Assembly (NCBI GenBank): GCA_024276825.1
Contig: JAJRWI010000004.1
Coordinates: 13,723 to 77,722 of the forward strand
Length of the DNA stretch: 64,000 nt
Direction: 5' to 3'
From: an archaeon
GTDB taxonomy: Archaea; Asgardarchaeota; Thorarchaeia; Thorarchaeales; Thorarchaeaceae
Each line of letters begins with the position of its first letter. Position 1 is the stretch's first letter. This document shows positions 2,700 through 14,327 of this stretch, one piece after another. A program made the position numbers and the translations under genes. The notes beneath the pieces are model-generated. The model did no database searches, was not told where the DNA came from, and saw only the letters and a program-made list of their open reading frames with translations.

Positions 2700-3173
2700 A
2701 TGAGCAGGATGGTACTGGAACGACCTCAAAACGCGAAGCAACTTGAAGACTTTGTTGAGAAAGCGATTAATGAGTACAAGCTCAGCTCCATTAGAGAGAT
2801 GAGCGAGATCGCAAATGTCAGTAATGATACTATTGTTGAAGTGATTCAGAAGCTTATCACTGAGAACCGGATTGATGGACGCATAGACCTTGAGGATGAA
2901 CGGTTCTTCAGCAGCAGGATTGATGTCTCTACTGCTCCAACAGTCAAGAGCTCAACAGAAGCAAGGATAGTCCAGCCAGATAATAAATATGGGAAATATG
3001 CGATATTGTCCGGTGCTGCCATCATCATTGTCGACGAGCTTATCCCAATATTTACTATCAACTCGATCTCCATGGCAGATGTCAAGGGGATCCTATTATT
3101 GATGGGTTTGGGCCTAATTATTGGAGGTCTATATTATACCAGCCAGAGAGGCACAGAGATAGTCACTGAGTGA
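2700..3173 (+). CDS. Winged-helix (PCI-like) domain protein with C-terminal transmembrane segments
   Basis: SIREMSEIANVS..TIVEVIQKLITENRIDGRID resembles a PCI winged helix. Hydrophobic C-terminus (GILLLMGLGLIIGGLYY). Confidence 0.55.
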   Translation: MSRMVLERPQNAKQLEDFVEKAINEYKLSSIREMSEIANVSNDTIVEVIQKLITENRIDGRIDLEDERFFSSRIDVSTAPTVKSSTEARIVQPDNKYGKYAILSGAAIIIVDELIPIFTINSISMADVKGILLLMGLGLIIGGLYYTSQRGTEIVTE

Positions 3174-4293: not shown

Positions 4294-7200
4294 CTAAGTC
4301 CGTTGAATTGCTCCAAAAATCTCCCCCTTTGCCCTTTTTATTGCGGCCTTGATCTCAGGGTCCTCTCGCAGCTCTGCCCATTTGTAGATTGCACCAACAA
4401 TCTCCATGGGATTGTATAACTCAGTAATAGCTGCTAGTATCTTATCCTTAACGCTCAGCACAGCTGCTCTGATTATTGGGTCATTTTCCAATACCCTCCA
4501 TCCGCCAACAGCATCTAGAATTATCCATGGCTCATTGTCACTTTTAATGGCTATTGCAATAGTTTTGTTGCTATTTTGAATCGATGATATTATCAGTGTG
4601 TCATGCATTATGTTTTCCCACTTTCGAATGGCACTTATTATTCTCCAAGAGGCGGAGTTTTGCTCAATGGCCTTTGCTATTGCCTGTCGTATTTGTGGGT
4701 CGCTAGTTAATTCACTCCAGCCACTGATATTATCAATTATTGTCCATGGTGCCTCATCATGTTCTATGGCCTCAGCTATTCTTCTTTCGACACTTTCAAT
4801 TGATTCCAGTATCATTGGGTTATTCCTAAGTTCACTCCATTTCCGTATCTCATGAATCATCATCCAGGGTGTTTCACCATGTTCAATGGTCCTAGTGATT
4901 GCTGCTATTACATTAGGGTCACTTCTCAGATCTGCCCATTTACTTATCTCTCTAATTAATAGCCATGGCATTTCATGTTGTTCAAGAATCCTTGCTATCA
5001 TTGCTTTAATTTCTGAGTCGTTTCTAAAATCATCCCATTCACAGACTTCACGTACTGTTCTCAAGTTTTTGATTGACTCTGTTATTGCTTGTCTAATATG
5101 AGGGTCGCTCCTAAGATGGTCCCATTTACAGACCTCACGAATTATCCACCATGGTTCGAAATCCAGTTTAATTGCATTAGCTAATGCCCTCGTAATTCTG
5201 GAATCATTTCGAAGCTCATCACGCTGCAAAATCACGCGGGTAATTCTCCAAGTCTCATGACCCGTTTCTAAGGTGCTTATTATCTTCCCTTTTACTCGTT
5301 CAACTGCAGCGCATATTTCAGGATCATCTCTTAGTCCCTCATTACTTAAGATGAAACTAATAACACTCCATGGTCTTTCATGCTGTTCAATACTATTCCT
5401 GAATAATTGGTGCCACTCCGTAGAGAATTGACGCCCCAACATCTCATCAATCATCACGGTTGTGCCTAAAAGTCCTCGGAAAAGATTCTCATATCTTGAT
5501 ATTGCTATATTGAAATAATTGATATAATCCATAATAGTTGATGGGATTATATGACTTGCATAATACTTCTCTATATTAATCACTATTAAGTTATAGATGG
5601 TATTTTCTAGGAGATCTGGGGCATTATTTCTGCACCACTCAAGAAGTGATAATATGAGTGTTTCATTAATTGTAATCGGTTGGTCCGCGATCGTATCTGA
5701 TGGTAGAAAGAAAACACTACTCTCATCTTTTGGTGTATGTCTCCAGAACTCCTCGGCCAATGTTCTATGGGGCAATTGAACCAGATCCAAGTCTTGCATA
5801 TTTACAATGATTAGCTCTCCCCATTCAACTAGCTTGGATATTATCATCTCTAAGTCAAACTTTAGGTTTCCCCTGAGCCTTTTCCTTACAGCTGTTATGT
5901 CCTCAGTAGACTCAATTAGATAATCTATTGGAACTGGCATATCATGCGCATTGAAGAAAGAAATGGTTGAAACTAATGCCTTGAATAGCCTTTCCTTTTT
6001 TGATCTATTCACAGTGAATGGTGTGTCAAACACATGTTTATGAATCCGATACAACAGCGAATGAGTCGAATCAAGGTCATAATAATACTTGCGAATTTCA
6101 TCCCCAATATCAAGTTCATCTATGTCCTGACCCGCTCTAAGCGAATTGAGGGCAAATGAAAGAAGCCATAGACTACCACGGGACTTCTCAGATATTTTTC
6201 TGACCAATGTTGAATCAATGTCTATCTTCTCTTTGAATTGGCTTATGATTCCCTCAATTGTTCTATCAAATTCCTCCTGTTGAAGCTTTGTTGTTGGAAG
6301 AAGTTTAGATGGCTGCTCATCATATGACTCTGCAATCCTTCTCTGCAAATCCATTACTGACCTGTCAAAATCATTATAGAGTGGACGTGCTAAAAATAGG
6401 AAATTAATGGCCCTATGAATGCTTTCTTTATTATGCTTTGAAGTCCTGTATCTTGAAAAGATCTCATTAGATACATCTACATTCACATGAATATTGTCTA
6501 TTATGAACAGCACTCTCTCTGGTAAAACCTTCTCGCCCAGCGATTGAACTGCTGAAACATTGTATAATGAGTTGATGGTTCCGAGAATCCGTTCAATATC
6601 CTCTATTATTTTATCTGCGATTTCTGCTCCAGTCTTGGACTCGAGATTCAGATAGTAAGTGAAATGTCCCCATTCACTGATCCGCTTAAACCCCAGGATA
6701 AAGCTAAGAGTAGTCTTGCCCGCGCCTGACTTTGCTACTATCAGCTGCATATTGGAGGTGTTTTCAAAATTGTGTTCAATGCTTTCAATCAGGTCGTTTC
6801 GTTCATAAAAATATTCTTCAATGAGATCCAGCCAACTTATGTGCGGCTTTCTGAAAAACATTGGCTTCGGCCGATGGCCCCCATATAGTTTCCATTCTTC
6901 AATGTCATTCAACACATCCTCAAAGAAAAGAACACTTTGCAACGAACGAAAGTATGTTGACCTGATTGGAGGAATCAATGTTTGTGATATATATTGTTGA
7001 ACGGTATTGATGTTCTCATGTACGGTGAACAGCAACTCCAGAATACTGGAGTCTGATGCCTGAACAGCTACGACTCTTGCAAGTCTAAGTCTTAGATGCA
7101 TGGCAATGGCTTGAGAAGTCTGTTGGTCAAATCCAGCACCTGTCAATATTGCTGAGATAATCTCAATAAATGACCTGTTGTTTTTTATGCTCTCAAATAC

Positions 7201-7506
7201 AAGGTCCTTCTCTTTGTGAATATGGTCTACAAGGCCATCAAGAACCTTCTTTTGCTTCCTGTCCAGTGTCCTGTAAATCTCTAGCTCCTTGATACTCTTT
7301 CTTATGCTCTTTCTTATTGCTCTTTGACAGTTCTTATTCCATAGCCACTCAAGAACCTTTACTACCGAGTCACCTGCCAGTTGCGAAAATGCTGATGATG
7401 CAAAATTGCCCGCCACATTCAACAGTGTTTTTATACTCTCTGAACTTGTAAGAATAAGAGCAATTCTTGAAAGGATACTCGGCGCGTCATTGGCATCGTC
7501 TGACAT
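4294..7506 (-). CDS. Large STAND/NACHT-like P-loop NTPase with C-terminal helical repeats
   Basis: Walker A AKSGAGKTT, Walker B VLFIIDNIH, GxL (SRGSLWLL) motif, winged-helix LPH motif, and about 10 C-terminal repeats. Confidence 0.7.
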   Translation of the reverse strand: MSDDANDAPSILSRIALILTSSESIKTLLNVAGNFASSAFSQLAGDSVVKVLEWLWNKNCQRAIRKSIRKSIKELEIYRTLDRKQKKVLDGLVDHIHKEKDLVFESIKNNRSFIEIISAILTGAGFDQQTSQAIAMHLRLRLARVVAVQASDSSILELLFTVHENINTVQQYISQTLIPPIRSTYFRSLQSVLFFEDVLNDIEEWKLYGGHRPKPMFFRKPHISWLDLIEEYFYERNDLIESIEHNFENTSNMQLIVAKSGAGKTTLSFILGFKRISEWGHFTYYLNLESKTGAEIADKIIEDIERILGTINSLYNVSAVQSLGEKVLPERVLFIIDNIHVNVDVSNEIFSRYRTSKHNKESIHRAINFLFLARPLYNDFDRSVMDLQRRIAESYDEQPSKLLPTTKLQQEEFDRTIEGIISQFKEKIDIDSTLVRKISEKSRGSLWLLSFALNSLRAGQDIDELDIGDEIRKYYYDLDSTHSLLYRIHKHVFDTPFTVNRSKKERLFKALVSTISFFNAHDMPVPIDYLIESTEDITAVRKRLRGNLKFDLEMIISKLVEWGELIIVNMQDLDLVQLPHRTLAEEFWRHTPKDESSVFFLPSDTIADQPITINETLILSLLEWCRNNAPDLLENTIYNLIVINIEKYYASHIIPSTIMDYINYFNIAISRYENLFRGLLGTTVMIDEMLGRQFSTEWHQLFRNSIEQHERPWSVISFILSNEGLRDDPEICAAVERVKGKIISTLETGHETWRITRVILQRDELRNDSRITRALANAIKLDFEPWWIIREVCKWDHLRSDPHIRQAITESIKNLRTVREVCEWDDFRNDSEIKAMIARILEQHEMPWLLIREISKWADLRSDPNVIAAITRTIEHGETPWMMIHEIRKWSELRNNPMILESIESVERRIAEAIEHDEAPWTIIDNISGWSELTSDPQIRQAIAKAIEQNSASWRIISAIRKWENIMHDTLIISSIQNSNKTIAIAIKSDNEPWIILDAVGGWRVLENDPIIRAAVLSVKDKILAAITELYNPMEIVGAIYKWAELREDPEIKAAIKRAKGEIFGAIQRT
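4297..5373 (-). repeat. Intragenic protein repeat, about 10 copies of roughly 30-40 aa, consensus PWxhIxxIxxWxxLRxDPxIxxAIxxxIE
   Basis: PWWIIREVCKWDHLRSDPHIRQAI, PWLLIREISKWADLRSDPNVIAAI, PWTIIDNISGWSELTSDPQIRQAI and similar units. Confidence 0.85.
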
Positions 7507-7912: not shown

Positions 7913-9958
7913 ATGAAGACCTATCCTACTGACAGACCTGTTCTTGTGACATGTGGATTGCCTTATGCAAGTGGAACCATGCACATTGGTCATCTTCGCA
8001 CTTATGTGCCAGCTGATGTTTTTGTCAGACTCCTCAGAAAAATGCGGGTGGATGTGACCTTTGTGTGCGGATCGGACACCCATGGTACTCCAGTTGTGAC
8101 CGCCGCTGAAAAGGAAGGTGTCACTCCAAAGGAGTTGTACTCAAAGTACCACCAGCATTATCTCGAGATGTTTCCAAAGATAAACATAATCTTCGACAAC
8201 TATGGCACAACTGATGACCCCGAGAATATTGAACGGACAACTCAGATTGTAAATGAGTTGAAGAAGAATGGATACATCTATCCAAAGGATTTAGAAACCC
8301 CATATTGTGACAAGTGCTGACGGTCTCTTCCTGATAGATATGTACGAGGTGAATGCCCTTACTGTGGTGCTGATGCACGTGGCGACGAATGTGATCAGGG
8401 ATGCGGCAGGTATCTCGAGCCCGGTGAGATTCTTAATCCACGATGTGCCATTTGTGGGTCTCCAACAAGGCCAGTCACGCGTACTCATTACTATTTCAAA
8501 CTGACAGCATTTGAGGAATTCCTGAATGAATATCTAAAAAATGTCGATGGTACCAAGAACGCAAGAAACTACGCGTTGGGCTGGGTAAAGGAAGGTCTTA
8601 AGGACTGGTGTATCACACGAGACCTTGATTGGGGCATCAAGTTCCCAGGAGATGAGGATCTGACCCTATATGTTTGGGTCGATGCTCCAATTCATTACAT
8701 GTCAAGTACTGAGCAATGGGCCAAGAAGACGGGTAATCCTAATGCTTGGGAGAAGTTCTGGAAACCCGGCGATGGTATTATCGTTCATTACATTGGTCAA
8801 GACATTGTATATCACCATTGCATATTCTGGCCATCTATGTTAAAGGGAAGTGGATATAATCTCCCATACGCAATAGTTGCATCGGGCATGGTCAAGGTTG
8901 AAGGACATAATTTCAGTAGAAGTAGGGGATATGTTGTCTGGATAGAAGACGACTATCTTGCCAAAGGAATGGACCCAGACTATCTACGATACTATATGGT
9001 GAGTGCGACCAGTCAGACCAAAGATCTTGACTTCTCATGGGAGACCTTGAAGGACAAGGTGAACAATGAATTGGTAGCAACTCTTGGTAATTTTATCTAT
9101 AGGGCTCTTCATTTCACAAGGAAGAAGTTTGGAGTCATACCCGATGGTGTTCTTGATGCGAAGTTGAAGGATGAGATTCAAAAGACGGTTTCCACAGTAA
9201 TAGATGCAGTCAATGAATATGAACTCAAGAAGGTCAGTGACACAATACTTCACCTTGCCACAATTGGAAACGAGTACTTCCAAGAAAACAGGCCTTGGGA
9301 ACTAATACACACTGACAAGGAGCAATGCGGTCGCGTTCTGTTTAATGCGCTGAGTCTAGTAAAAGCCCTTGCAATCTTGATTGAACCCATAATGCCCTCG
9401 GTTGCTGAGAAGGTCTGGGGTCAGATTGGATACTCATCAAGTGAAATCCATTCAACTACTTTTGATGAAATTCTCTGTCCTCTTGAATCTGGAAGGGAAC
9501 TCCCCTCCCCAGTGCCAATAATCACAAAACTGGAAGATGACGTGCTAGAGTCCCTGAAAGATGTCCTAACAACAAGGATTAAAGCGGCAGAGGCTTCAGA
9601 GCGAGGTGAATCATCGGAGGAAAAAACCGTGGCAGTGTCTTTTGAAGAGTTCAAAAAGCTTGATTTGAGAGCAGGCAAGATTATCGAATGCGAGAAGGTA
9701 CCAAGAACCAAGAAGTTGCTAAAGCTCACTGTTGATATCGGCGACGAAGTCAGGACAATTGTCACAGGCCTTGCTGATCAATATGAACCGGAGGACCTGA
9801 AAGGAATCACAGCTCTGTTCTTGGTGAACCTCGAGCCAAAGAAATTTGCTGGGATTGAGAGCAAGGGGATGATTCTTGCTGTTGAGAAGGCCGATGAGCC
9901 CGGTCGTTGGATTCCAGTGAAGGTGGATGGCGTTCCGCCGGGAAGTAAGGCTGCATAA
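7913..9958 (+). CDS. metG: Methionyl-tRNA synthetase with C-terminal tRNA-binding OB domain, interrupted by an in-frame TGA at 8318-8320
   Basis: LPYA, HIGH, GSDTHG, Zn knuckles, YVWVDA, HYIGQDI, a KMSKS-equivalent FSRSRG and a C-terminal Trbp111-like domain. Track ORFs 7913-8320 and 8576-9958 share a frame, and the gap translates as [16 protein letters not shown]...HYYFKL. Confidence 0.93.
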
Positions 9959-13166: not shown

Positions 13167-14327
13167 ATGGGAAATAGAGTAGCAATTGCTGGAGTTGGAC
13201 TTACCAAATTCGGTGAACTCTGGGATAAGAGTCTTAGAGACATCACGCTTGAAGCTGGAATGTATGCAATATTTGATGCAGGAATCAAAGGAAGCGAAAT
13301 TGATGCCGTGACCATTGGCAATATGAGCGCCGGCAGATTCACTGGACAGGAGCACCTAGGTGCCCTTGCGGTCGATCAGGGTGGCCTTGGAACAATACCT
13401 GCGTATAGTGTTGAGGCCGCCTGTGCCAGTGGTGGTGCAGCTGTTAGACATGCCTACATGGCAATAAAGTCTGGCGAGCATGATGCGATTCTCGTTCTGG
13501 GTTCTGAAAAGATGAGTGATGTGAATCAGTCACAAGCAATGGACACAGTTAGCGTTGCCTCAGACTGGGAGTGGGAAGGTCTCTTTGGTGCAACTTTTCC
13601 GGCACTCTATGCATTTATGGCACGAAGGCATATGCTCGAATATGGTACAACTGAAGAACAACTGAGTCTTGTAACAGTCAAGAACCATGCAAATGCGGCC
13701 AATAACCCATGGGCTCAATTTCAGAGGCCTGTACCATTGGAGATCGTGATGAACTCTGGGCTTATCGCCGATCCAATCAGGGTCTTACACTCATCACCAA
13801 TCAGCGATGGTGCAGCAGGTCTGATTATGTGCACTGAAGAGAAAGCCAAGGAACTCACAGACATTCCCGTTTACATTGAGGCATCCACACAGGCCAGTGA
13901 TACATTGGCCCTACATGATCGTGAGGACATTACAACAATGGCTGCCGTGAAGAAGTCATCTCGCGAAGCACTGCAGAAGGCGGGTCTGACCATTAATGAT
14001 ATCGATGTCTTTGAGGTCCATGATAGTTTCACAATAGGTGAGATAATAATCACCGAAGATATTGGGATAACTGAAAAGGGAAACGGTGGTAGGATAGTGG
14101 AAGAGGGACTCACAGCCCTCGATGGTAAATTCCCAGTCAATCCCTCTGGTGGCCTTAAAGCGCGTGGTCATCCAATAGGAGCCACAGGTGTCGCTCAGAT
14201 TGCTGAACTGGTCCTTCAACTCAGGGGCGATGCTGAGAAACGACAGGTTGATGGTGCTGAGACCGCTATGGCAGTTAATATTGGAGGCACGGGTGCAACC
14301 TCAATTGTACACATCTTAAGGAGGTAA
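13167..14327 (+). CDS. Acetoacetyl-CoA thiolase (archaeal type)
   Basis: EAACASGG, VKNH, SPISDGAA, EVHDSF, NPSGGLKARGHPIGATG. Confidence 0.95.
   Translation: MGNRVAIAGVGLTKFGELWDKSLRDITLEAGMYAIFDAGIKGSEIDAVTIGNMSAGRFTGQEHLGALAVDQGGLGTIPAYSVEAACASGGAAVRHAYMAIKSGEHDAILVLGSEKMSDVNQSQAMDTVSVASDWEWEGLFGATFPALYAFMARRHMLEYGTTEEQLSLVTVKNHANAANNPWAQFQRPVPLEIVMNSGLIADPIRVLHSSPISDGAAGLIMCTEEKAKELTDIPVYIEASTQASDTLALHDREDITTMAAVKKSSREALQKAGLTINDIDVFEVHDSFTIGEIIITEDIGITEKGNGGRIVEEGLTALDGKFPVNPSGGLKARGHPIGATGVAQIAELVLQLRGDAEKRQVDGAETAMAVNIGGTGATSIVHILRR

Follow-up and report, generated by a model that had tools for sequence, protein, structure and literature searches.

A lineage-specific STAND protein in a Thorarchaeota genome

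The stretch of DNA analysed here (the window, 64,000 nucleotides; positions 13,723 to 77,722 of contig JAJRWI010000004.1, assembly GCA_024276825.1) carries at 4294..7506, on its minus strand, a gene that encodes a 1070-amino acid STAND (signal transduction ATPases with numerous domains) NTPase, P0001, with an ATG start and no internal stops. P0001 is a system of a known kind, an NLR-like (nucleotide-binding leucine-rich repeat receptor) STAND protein, fitted with two lineage-specific and uncatalogued modules, a helical N-terminal domain and a C-terminal repeat. We regard it as probably a ligand-gated NLR-like STAND switch that works in a setting of conflict or defence and whose N-terminal domains would most plausibly target the membrane.

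The query is a real and intact gene of a Thorarchaeota (Asgard) metagenome-assembled genome (MAG). Its reading frame is unbroken across 1070 codons with every motif retained, it is present as a single copy in its own genome (98% complete), and those homologues that carry names likewise come from Thorarchaeota or Promethearchaeota MAGs. The methionyl-tRNA synthetase (MetRS) encoded by the flanking metG is 65-73% identical to that of Candidatus Thorarchaeota/Promethearchaeota MAGs and about 50% identical to the methanogen enzymes, which bears out the Asgard host proposed in an earlier note on this DNA, made from the sequence without database searches. The helical N-terminus, the P-loop motifs and the roughly ten repeats described in that note are all present, and the gene is indeed AT-richer than its neighbours, its G+C content of 0.396 being the lowest among the 35 open reading frames (ORFs) of at least 250 amino acids in the window (0.445 +/- 0.023).

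The central NTPase

The nucleotide-binding oligomerisation domain (NOD) module spans residues 201-480 (6067..6906; like all parts of the gene, on the minus strand), as delimited by invariant alignment columns and by matches to nSTAND profiles. The Walker A (GxxxxGK[ST]) and Walker B (hhhhD) signatures occur together on this single P-loop domain, as SGAGKTT (residues 260-266) within AKSGAGKTT (residues 258-266, with K264; 6709-6735) and as FIID (residues 334-337) within FIIDNIH (residues 334-340, with D337; 6487-6507). An alignment of the NTPase region of 19 family members reveals as invariant or nearly so a pre-P-loop motif FFRxPxxxWxD (FFRKPxxxWxD in P0001, residues 216-227), the two glycines and the lysine of Walker A, IIDNxH, the arginine of LhhAR (LFLAR, residues 369-375) and SLWLLSF (residues 445-451); the Walker A glycines and lysine and the Walker B aspartate are the same in 19/19 members. 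The residue that follows the Walker B aspartate is asparagine in 16 of the 19, not aspartate or glutamate, and the absence of this second acidic residue from IIDNxH hints at a switch with slow hydrolysis, not a motor.

To judge from its sequence, the NTPase groups with STAND proteins, as the earlier note had supposed, and closest to nSTAND5, nSTAND3 and nSTAND1. When the 19 members were scanned singly, nSTAND5 matched 17 of them at E<=0.01 (best 4.3e-9), nSTAND3 matched 12 and nSTAND1 five, and the relative P0015 exceeded the curated nSTAND5 cut-off (35.0 vs 34). P0001 itself aligns with the full nSTAND1 domain (residues 231-465 on profile positions 14-245, E 2e-4), at 21-22.5 bits for a curated cut-off of 27.1. 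NACHT (PF05729) gave no match in P0001 and matched only two of the 19 members, with a best E of 3.6e-4, under the cut-off. The language-model neighbours of residues 201-700 are all STAND clusters (NPHP3_N, nSTAND3, NB-ARC and NACHT, at 0.92-0.95), and the nearest Atlas clusters of the NTPase are NPHP3_N, nSTAND3 and NB-ARC, at 0.95. A placement outside STAND, for which the earlier note had allowed, is not what these comparisons give. Kaur et al. (eLife 2021, PMC8195603) name nSTAND1 among the NTPases of prokaryotic conflict systems.

It is very improbable that P0001 is not a STAND protein at all, be it that the gene encodes some other P-loop protein, such as a divergent AAA+ one, with a tail of solenoid repeats, or that it is an accessory gene in decay and devoid of function. 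The best matches of a PDB profile search are Hsp101/ClpB-type AAA+ domains (E 2.6e-6), found together with the plant NLR ADR1, NAIP and NLRP2, and P0001 scores under the Pfam thresholds; however, each of these PDB matches covers only about 100 residues, those to AAA+ lying round the P-loop, whereas the nSTAND matches are long and the language-model neighbours are exclusively STAND. A phmmer search of the PDB with the whole protein gave no match, nor did NCBIfam. The combination of a single NTPase domain with repeats, the relative P0020 in which WD40 has been swapped in, and a conserved LPH motif after the NTPase also speak for STAND, while loss of function agrees poorly with an ORF intact over its whole length and with the conservation of all its motifs.

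The LPH motif belongs to the region after the NTPase (residues 481-708, 5383..6066), a helical and putative winged-helix stretch followed by a linker, which is conserved across the 19 family members. The motif GE..(n)..LPHxTLA (residues 578-588), conserved across the same members, sits where one would expect the histidine motif of the STAND winged helix, whose histidine contacts the nucleotide, and SLWLLSF is likewise rightly placed; by its sequence the region would be helical and possibly a winged helix.

The C-terminal repeats

Residues 709-1067 (4306..5382) comprise ten three-helix repeats, a candidate sensor solenoid, defined with AlphaFold2 (AF2), Foldseek and a hidden Markov model (HMM) of the unit; the family consensus is EPWRIIRAISGWEELREDPEIRAAIESVAPKIAEAI. 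The units measure 30-40 residues, mostly 33, or 40 through a 7-residue insert in the last helix, and bear the motif xPWxxIxxIxxWxxLRxDPxIxxAI. The unit HMM recovered 253 units in 42 family proteins, with a conserved core formed by P2, W3, I5, I6, I9, L15, I21, A24, I25, I32, A33, A35 and I36 (P2 is conserved in 95% of the units, W3 in 82% and A24 in 89%) and near-maximal entropy between the core positions, the variable ones being 4, 7, 8, 10, 11, 13, 14, 16, 17, 19, 20, 22, 23, 26 and 27. Such a pattern is what one usually sees where the scaffold is fixed and the binding surfaces vary. Because the second tryptophan of the unit is conserved in just 25% family-wide, the label 'Trp-rich' given to the repeat in the earlier note fits the subfamily of P0001, not the whole repeat family. 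TRF detected no DNA-level tandem repeat in the gene, which indicates that the units are old and diverged. Highly internally conserved, recombining repeats of the fungal-NLR type were considered and rejected, since TRF shows no identity at the DNA level.

An AF2 model of the repeats, built on an alignment of 30 family segments, predicts with high confidence (pLDDT 95.1, pTM 0.87) a regular solenoid in which each unit has helices of 8, 4 and 10-13 residues, that is, the stacked three-helix alpha-solenoid of armadillo (ARM) proteins. Compared with the PDB by Foldseek, this model has as its top matches importin-alpha, designed armadillo proteins and Vac8 (E 3e-4 to 1e-3, with TM-scores of only 0.3-0.4), and in the ESM Atlas it matches HEAT/ARM clusters (TM 0.5-0.56) that include actinobacterial NACHT-HEAT_2 NTPases. 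In Pfam scans of the 30 repeat segments, Arm was found in none, HEAT_2 in one and Cohesin_HEAT in two, and a dimer of the family consensus gave no Arm, HEAT, HEAT_PBS or LRV match, so neither Arm (PF00514) nor HEAT (PF02985, PF13646, PF03130) profiles recognise the repeat. According to the AF2 model, the repeat is a new sequence family but not a new fold, being a three-helix alpha-solenoid of the ARM/HEAT/PUF class; it shares its predicted fold class with importin-alpha, designed ARM proteins, Pumilio and the HEAT_2/HEAT_PBS solenoids, yet matches none of their profiles. The earlier note, which had called the repeat unfamiliar and distinct from TPR, WD40, ankyrin and LRR, was right as regards sequence, no Pfam repeat family (HEAT-PBS, which it had named as a candidate, included) having been matched, while the predicted structure is a familiar one. 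ARM/HEAT-class alpha-solenoids are a common sensor type among prokaryotic STANDs.

Between P0001 and its relative P0002, identity falls from 57% in the NOD and 51% in the N-terminal domain to 36% in the repeats, a divergence that looks sensor-like.

The N-terminal domain and its probable output

The N-terminal, all-helical domain (residues 1-200, 6907..7506) belongs to no known family and is a candidate for the output or effector part of the protein. The AF2 model of residues 1-215 is entirely helical (pLDDT 74.7), with pLDDT 85-92 over a core at residues 60-150 and low values at residues 30-50; in the confident core, taken as residues 58-150, about 6-7 short helices are modelled as packed into a compact bundle. 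Searches with this model by Foldseek and VIA returned nothing above noise, and a profile of the domain matched only designed helical bundles in the PDB. A likeness to NNH2 (NACHT N-terminal helical) lies in language-model features only (0.91, 168 shared), and Pfam scans of 11 N-domains did not bear this lead out, giving no NNH match. The N-domain appears to be a new, family-specific helical domain, no sequence or fold match having been found.

Two elements of the domain bear on its output. Residues 8-55 (7342..7485) form a moderately hydrophobic, Gly/Ala/Ser-rich helical hairpin with G32-S36-S40-G44 spacing, recognised from Kyte-Doolittle profiles and the N-domain alignment; its 19-residue maximum is 1.18 in P0001 and 1.4-2.0 in the homologues P0002, P0003, P0004 and P0007. 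It is followed at residues 58-73 (7288..7335) by a strongly basic amphipathic helix, KNCQRAIRKSIRKSIK, which has a hydrophobic moment of 0.77 and is helical in the AF2 model. We infer from these two elements that the output may be membrane-acting. Where the earlier note had proposed a helical and possibly membrane-acting effector, the helical part agrees with the AF2 model, and the supposed membrane action would depend on the moderately hydrophobic small-residue segment and the basic amphipathic helix.

An NLR-like sensor with a death-fold-like adaptor as its N-domain, recruiting a separately encoded effector, appears improbable to us. PMC8195603 reports helical adaptor domains at the N-termini of STAND proteins and also sets out the 'EAD principle', by which a homotypic adaptor recruits an effector encoded elsewhere. 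The compact bundle at residues 58-150, the language-model lead to NACHT N-terminal helical domains and a faint CARD match in the N-domain region of the homologue P0003 (E 0.003-0.005), taken as a lead only, would all suit such an adaptor. However, there is no death-fold among the top 50 VIA fold matches, the gene neighbours are not conserved, an enzyme is fused to the N-domain in none of the 42 family representatives, and a profile search of the query's own genome (98% complete) found no second copy of the domain on another protein, which argues against a homotypic adaptor and favours the domain as the output itself. A weak match of this search on contig 25 was rejected as a UvrA paralogue.

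The mechanism of the ligand-gated switch that we favour can be outlined by analogy with Apaf-1, NLRs, Avs and MalT. At rest, the solenoid would keep the nucleotide-bound NOD closed; the binding of a ligand, protein or otherwise, to the variable solenoid surface would then free the NOD, and nucleotide exchange would lead to oligomerisation and a clustering of the N-domains. The N-domain itself would be the output, since the genome holds no second copy for homotypic recruitment, and membrane perturbation would be the likeliest form of that output because of the hydrophobic small-residue hairpin and the basic amphipathic helix. The likeliest role is plausibly one in conflict or defence, through the sensing of a virus or other mobile element. 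A bolder version, in which these proteins are Thorarchaeota-specific immune receptors that sense Asgard viruses with a lineage-invented ARM-like solenoid and respond with a pore-forming N-domain, an analogue of the plant coiled-coil (CC) NLR resistosome invisible to current defence-finding tools, is doubtful.

Distribution and module shuffling

The query is a rare, patchy and non-syntenic accessory gene, almost confined to one Thorarchaeota family. A set of 5.8 billion proteins yielded three matches only, the query and two relatives, and a set of 1.8 billion proteins yielded 42 cluster representatives; the 90%-identity clusters of the family hold 1-3 members each. Its nearest two relatives (47% and 33% identity) sit in a single MAG as paralogues with different neighbourhoods. 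A comparison across genomes and a search of Asgard genomes for the repeat, much as the earlier note had suggested, confirm that the gene is not conserved: of 80 other same-family genomes, 10 have the NOD module, with 0-4 full copies per genome (four in G017, two in tandem in G006), and the repeat is present in 32 of 76 same-family genomes, as against 1 of 224 genomes from other families of the Asgard phylum. Within the genus, G001 (86% complete) has no match and G002 carries a diverged copy elsewhere. Searches of genome contigs and of viral contigs with P0001 found no relative.

Two of these genomes are worth a remark. In G006, four adjacent large ORFs of 749-1157 amino acids (C24:93099-102291) each match the NOD profile distantly (E ~1e-13) and, by this measure, seem to be members of a further STAND family arrayed in tandem. 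G017 has four or more full NOD copies and numerous ORFs made up of repeats alone, spread over the short contigs C134, C156, C194 and C74 (L005 and others), which suggests a local expansion that breaks the assembly.

Domain comparisons indicate that all three modules have been shuffled among relatives. In P0020, the N-domain and NOD are the same and WD40 has replaced the repeats, which means that the C-terminal superstructure-forming repeats are exchangeable, as they are in STAND proteins; P0018 joins the N-domain to repeats in the absence of an NTPase; P0010 couples the repeats to an Arf-like GTPase; and many proteins of the family consist of repeats only. Arf-family small GTPases from Thorarchaeota MAGs (P0010, P0046 and P0047) are fused to nine repeat units, so the repeat seems to serve non-STAND signalling proteins as well. 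Taken together, the distribution, the module shuffling and the sequence divergence are the evolutionary behaviour of NLR-like conflict genes.

Genomic context and links to defence

The STAND gene and metG are divergently oriented and separated by a spacer of 406 bp. The earlier note had seen the gene as standing alone beside metG, and this holds, as no partner gene is conserved across the homologue loci examined. Among 29 other Thorarchaeota-type metG loci, none has the query gene within 8 kb, and in genomes of the same genus beta-propeller proteins or a DDRGK-like gene lie upstream of metG instead; together with the patchy presence, this is not the conserved synteny of a housekeeping gene, which the note had considered as the contrary case. 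One of the seven homologue loci examined lies among defence genes. This locus, that of P0018 (L096:1-9652, an uncultured archaeal contig), encodes DruA-like and NucS_C-like proteins, a VapB antitoxin, RAMP and an AAA_21 ATPase, and looks like a defence island.

Several findings weigh against the reading of P0001 as a membrane-acting switch in conflict or defence. No PADLOC-DB family matched the query at E<=1, and the other six of the seven homologue loci have metabolic or housekeeping neighbours. P0001 stays under every Pfam curated cut-off, and UvrA paralogues of its own genome also match nSTAND models through the P-loop alone, so that weak nSTAND scores are by themselves unspecific and it is the long matches that carry weight. 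The STAND-specific fold proposed for the region after the NTPase rests on sequence, the N-domain model is only moderately confident, and the N-domain hydrophobicity of P0001 (maximum 1.2) is short of transmembrane-like. Of the possible Asgard immune receptor that the earlier note put forward, the host and the N-domain-NOD-repeat build are upheld, while the immune function is met by silence from PADLOC and by a defence context at a single locus.

An unlikely though serious possibility is that P0001 is a signalling or scaffolding STAND ATPase of a non-immune cellular process, in which the repeat is a general lineage-specific protein-binding module and the N-domain has an interaction or regulatory part. 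ARM/HEAT solenoids are typical scaffolds, the fusion of the repeat to Arf-like GTPases and the many repeat-only proteins point to a general-purpose module, and the non-defence neighbours at most homologue loci and the PADLOC result agree with such a role. It would, however, predict wider conservation and synteny, yet the NOD is found in only 10 of 80 same-family genomes and was not detected in the 86%-complete G001; a copy number of 0-4, an unconserved position and an atypical composition are also at odds with it.

Comparison with known systems

With nSTAND5 (PF25199), nSTAND3 (PF20720) and nSTAND1 (PF20703), the family shares a full-domain NOD match in most members and a tripartite build with a helical N-module and C-terminal superstructure-forming repeats. 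It differs from them in the sub-cut-off score of P0001, in its own pre-P-loop FFRxPxxxWxD and IIDNxH Walker B, in being archaeal and of one Thorarchaeota family, and in N- and C-modules unlike those described. With Avs1-5/AVAST and bNACHT it has in common a single-gene effector-NOD-solenoid organisation, an alpha-solenoid as the putative sensor and a patchy, paralogue-rich accessory distribution, but it has no PADLOC match, NACHT is matched only weakly and in two of 19 members, and no nuclease, SIR2, protease, TIR or other enzymatic effector can be recognised in the query. The plant CC-NLR ZAR1 and HeLo/MLKL N-domains offer an analogy in having a helical, non-enzymatic N-domain with a hydrophobic N-terminal segment on an oligomerising NOD, although no sequence or fold similarity to the query N-domain was found. 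A survey of Asgard defence lists NLR among the Asgard systems, acting through a NACHT module (PMC11291487).

The gene shows that one Thorarchaeota family has assembled STAND receptors of its own out of parts specific to the lineage, namely a new family of repeat sequences and a helical N-domain that is also new, which escape both the Pfam thresholds and PADLOC. No prokaryotes are more closely related to eukaryotes than the Asgard archaea, and both NLR-type STAND receptors and ARM/HEAT solenoids have a central place in the immunity and cell biology of eukaryotes. Should the proteins prove defensive, the known archaeal defences would gain one type of effector and one of sensor, and the interactions of Asgard archaea with their viruses would become easier to approach; otherwise, P0001 would be one more orphan STAND among many.

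Neighbouring genes

On the plus strand of the window, positions 2700-3173 encode a 157-amino acid protein with weak PCI/winged-helix matches. A homologue with 33% identity (L116:7137-7667), whose DDRGK match reaches 25.4 bits for a cut-off of 27.8, lies directly upstream of metG in G002, and from this arrangement a DUF362 gene and the STAND gene look inserted between the gene of the 157-amino acid protein and metG in the query genome.

The metG gene itself contains an in-frame TGA at window positions 8318-8320. This is codon 136 of a MetRS frame of 681 codons that is intact in all other respects, and it comes straight after the first CxxC zinc knuckle. At this codon, 22 Thorarchaeota-type relatives have GGN (Gly), GCT, AAT or AAG, a single base change separates GGA from TGA, and the metG ORF is uninterrupted in both same-genus genomes. 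The TGA may be a sequencing error, a site of readthrough or a very recent lesion; selenocysteine is unlikely, since the relatives have Gly, Ala, Asn or Lys and never Cys.

Contig 25 of the same genome (L108:835-6578) carries two tandem UvrA-like genes, of 943 and 971 amino acids, at its end.

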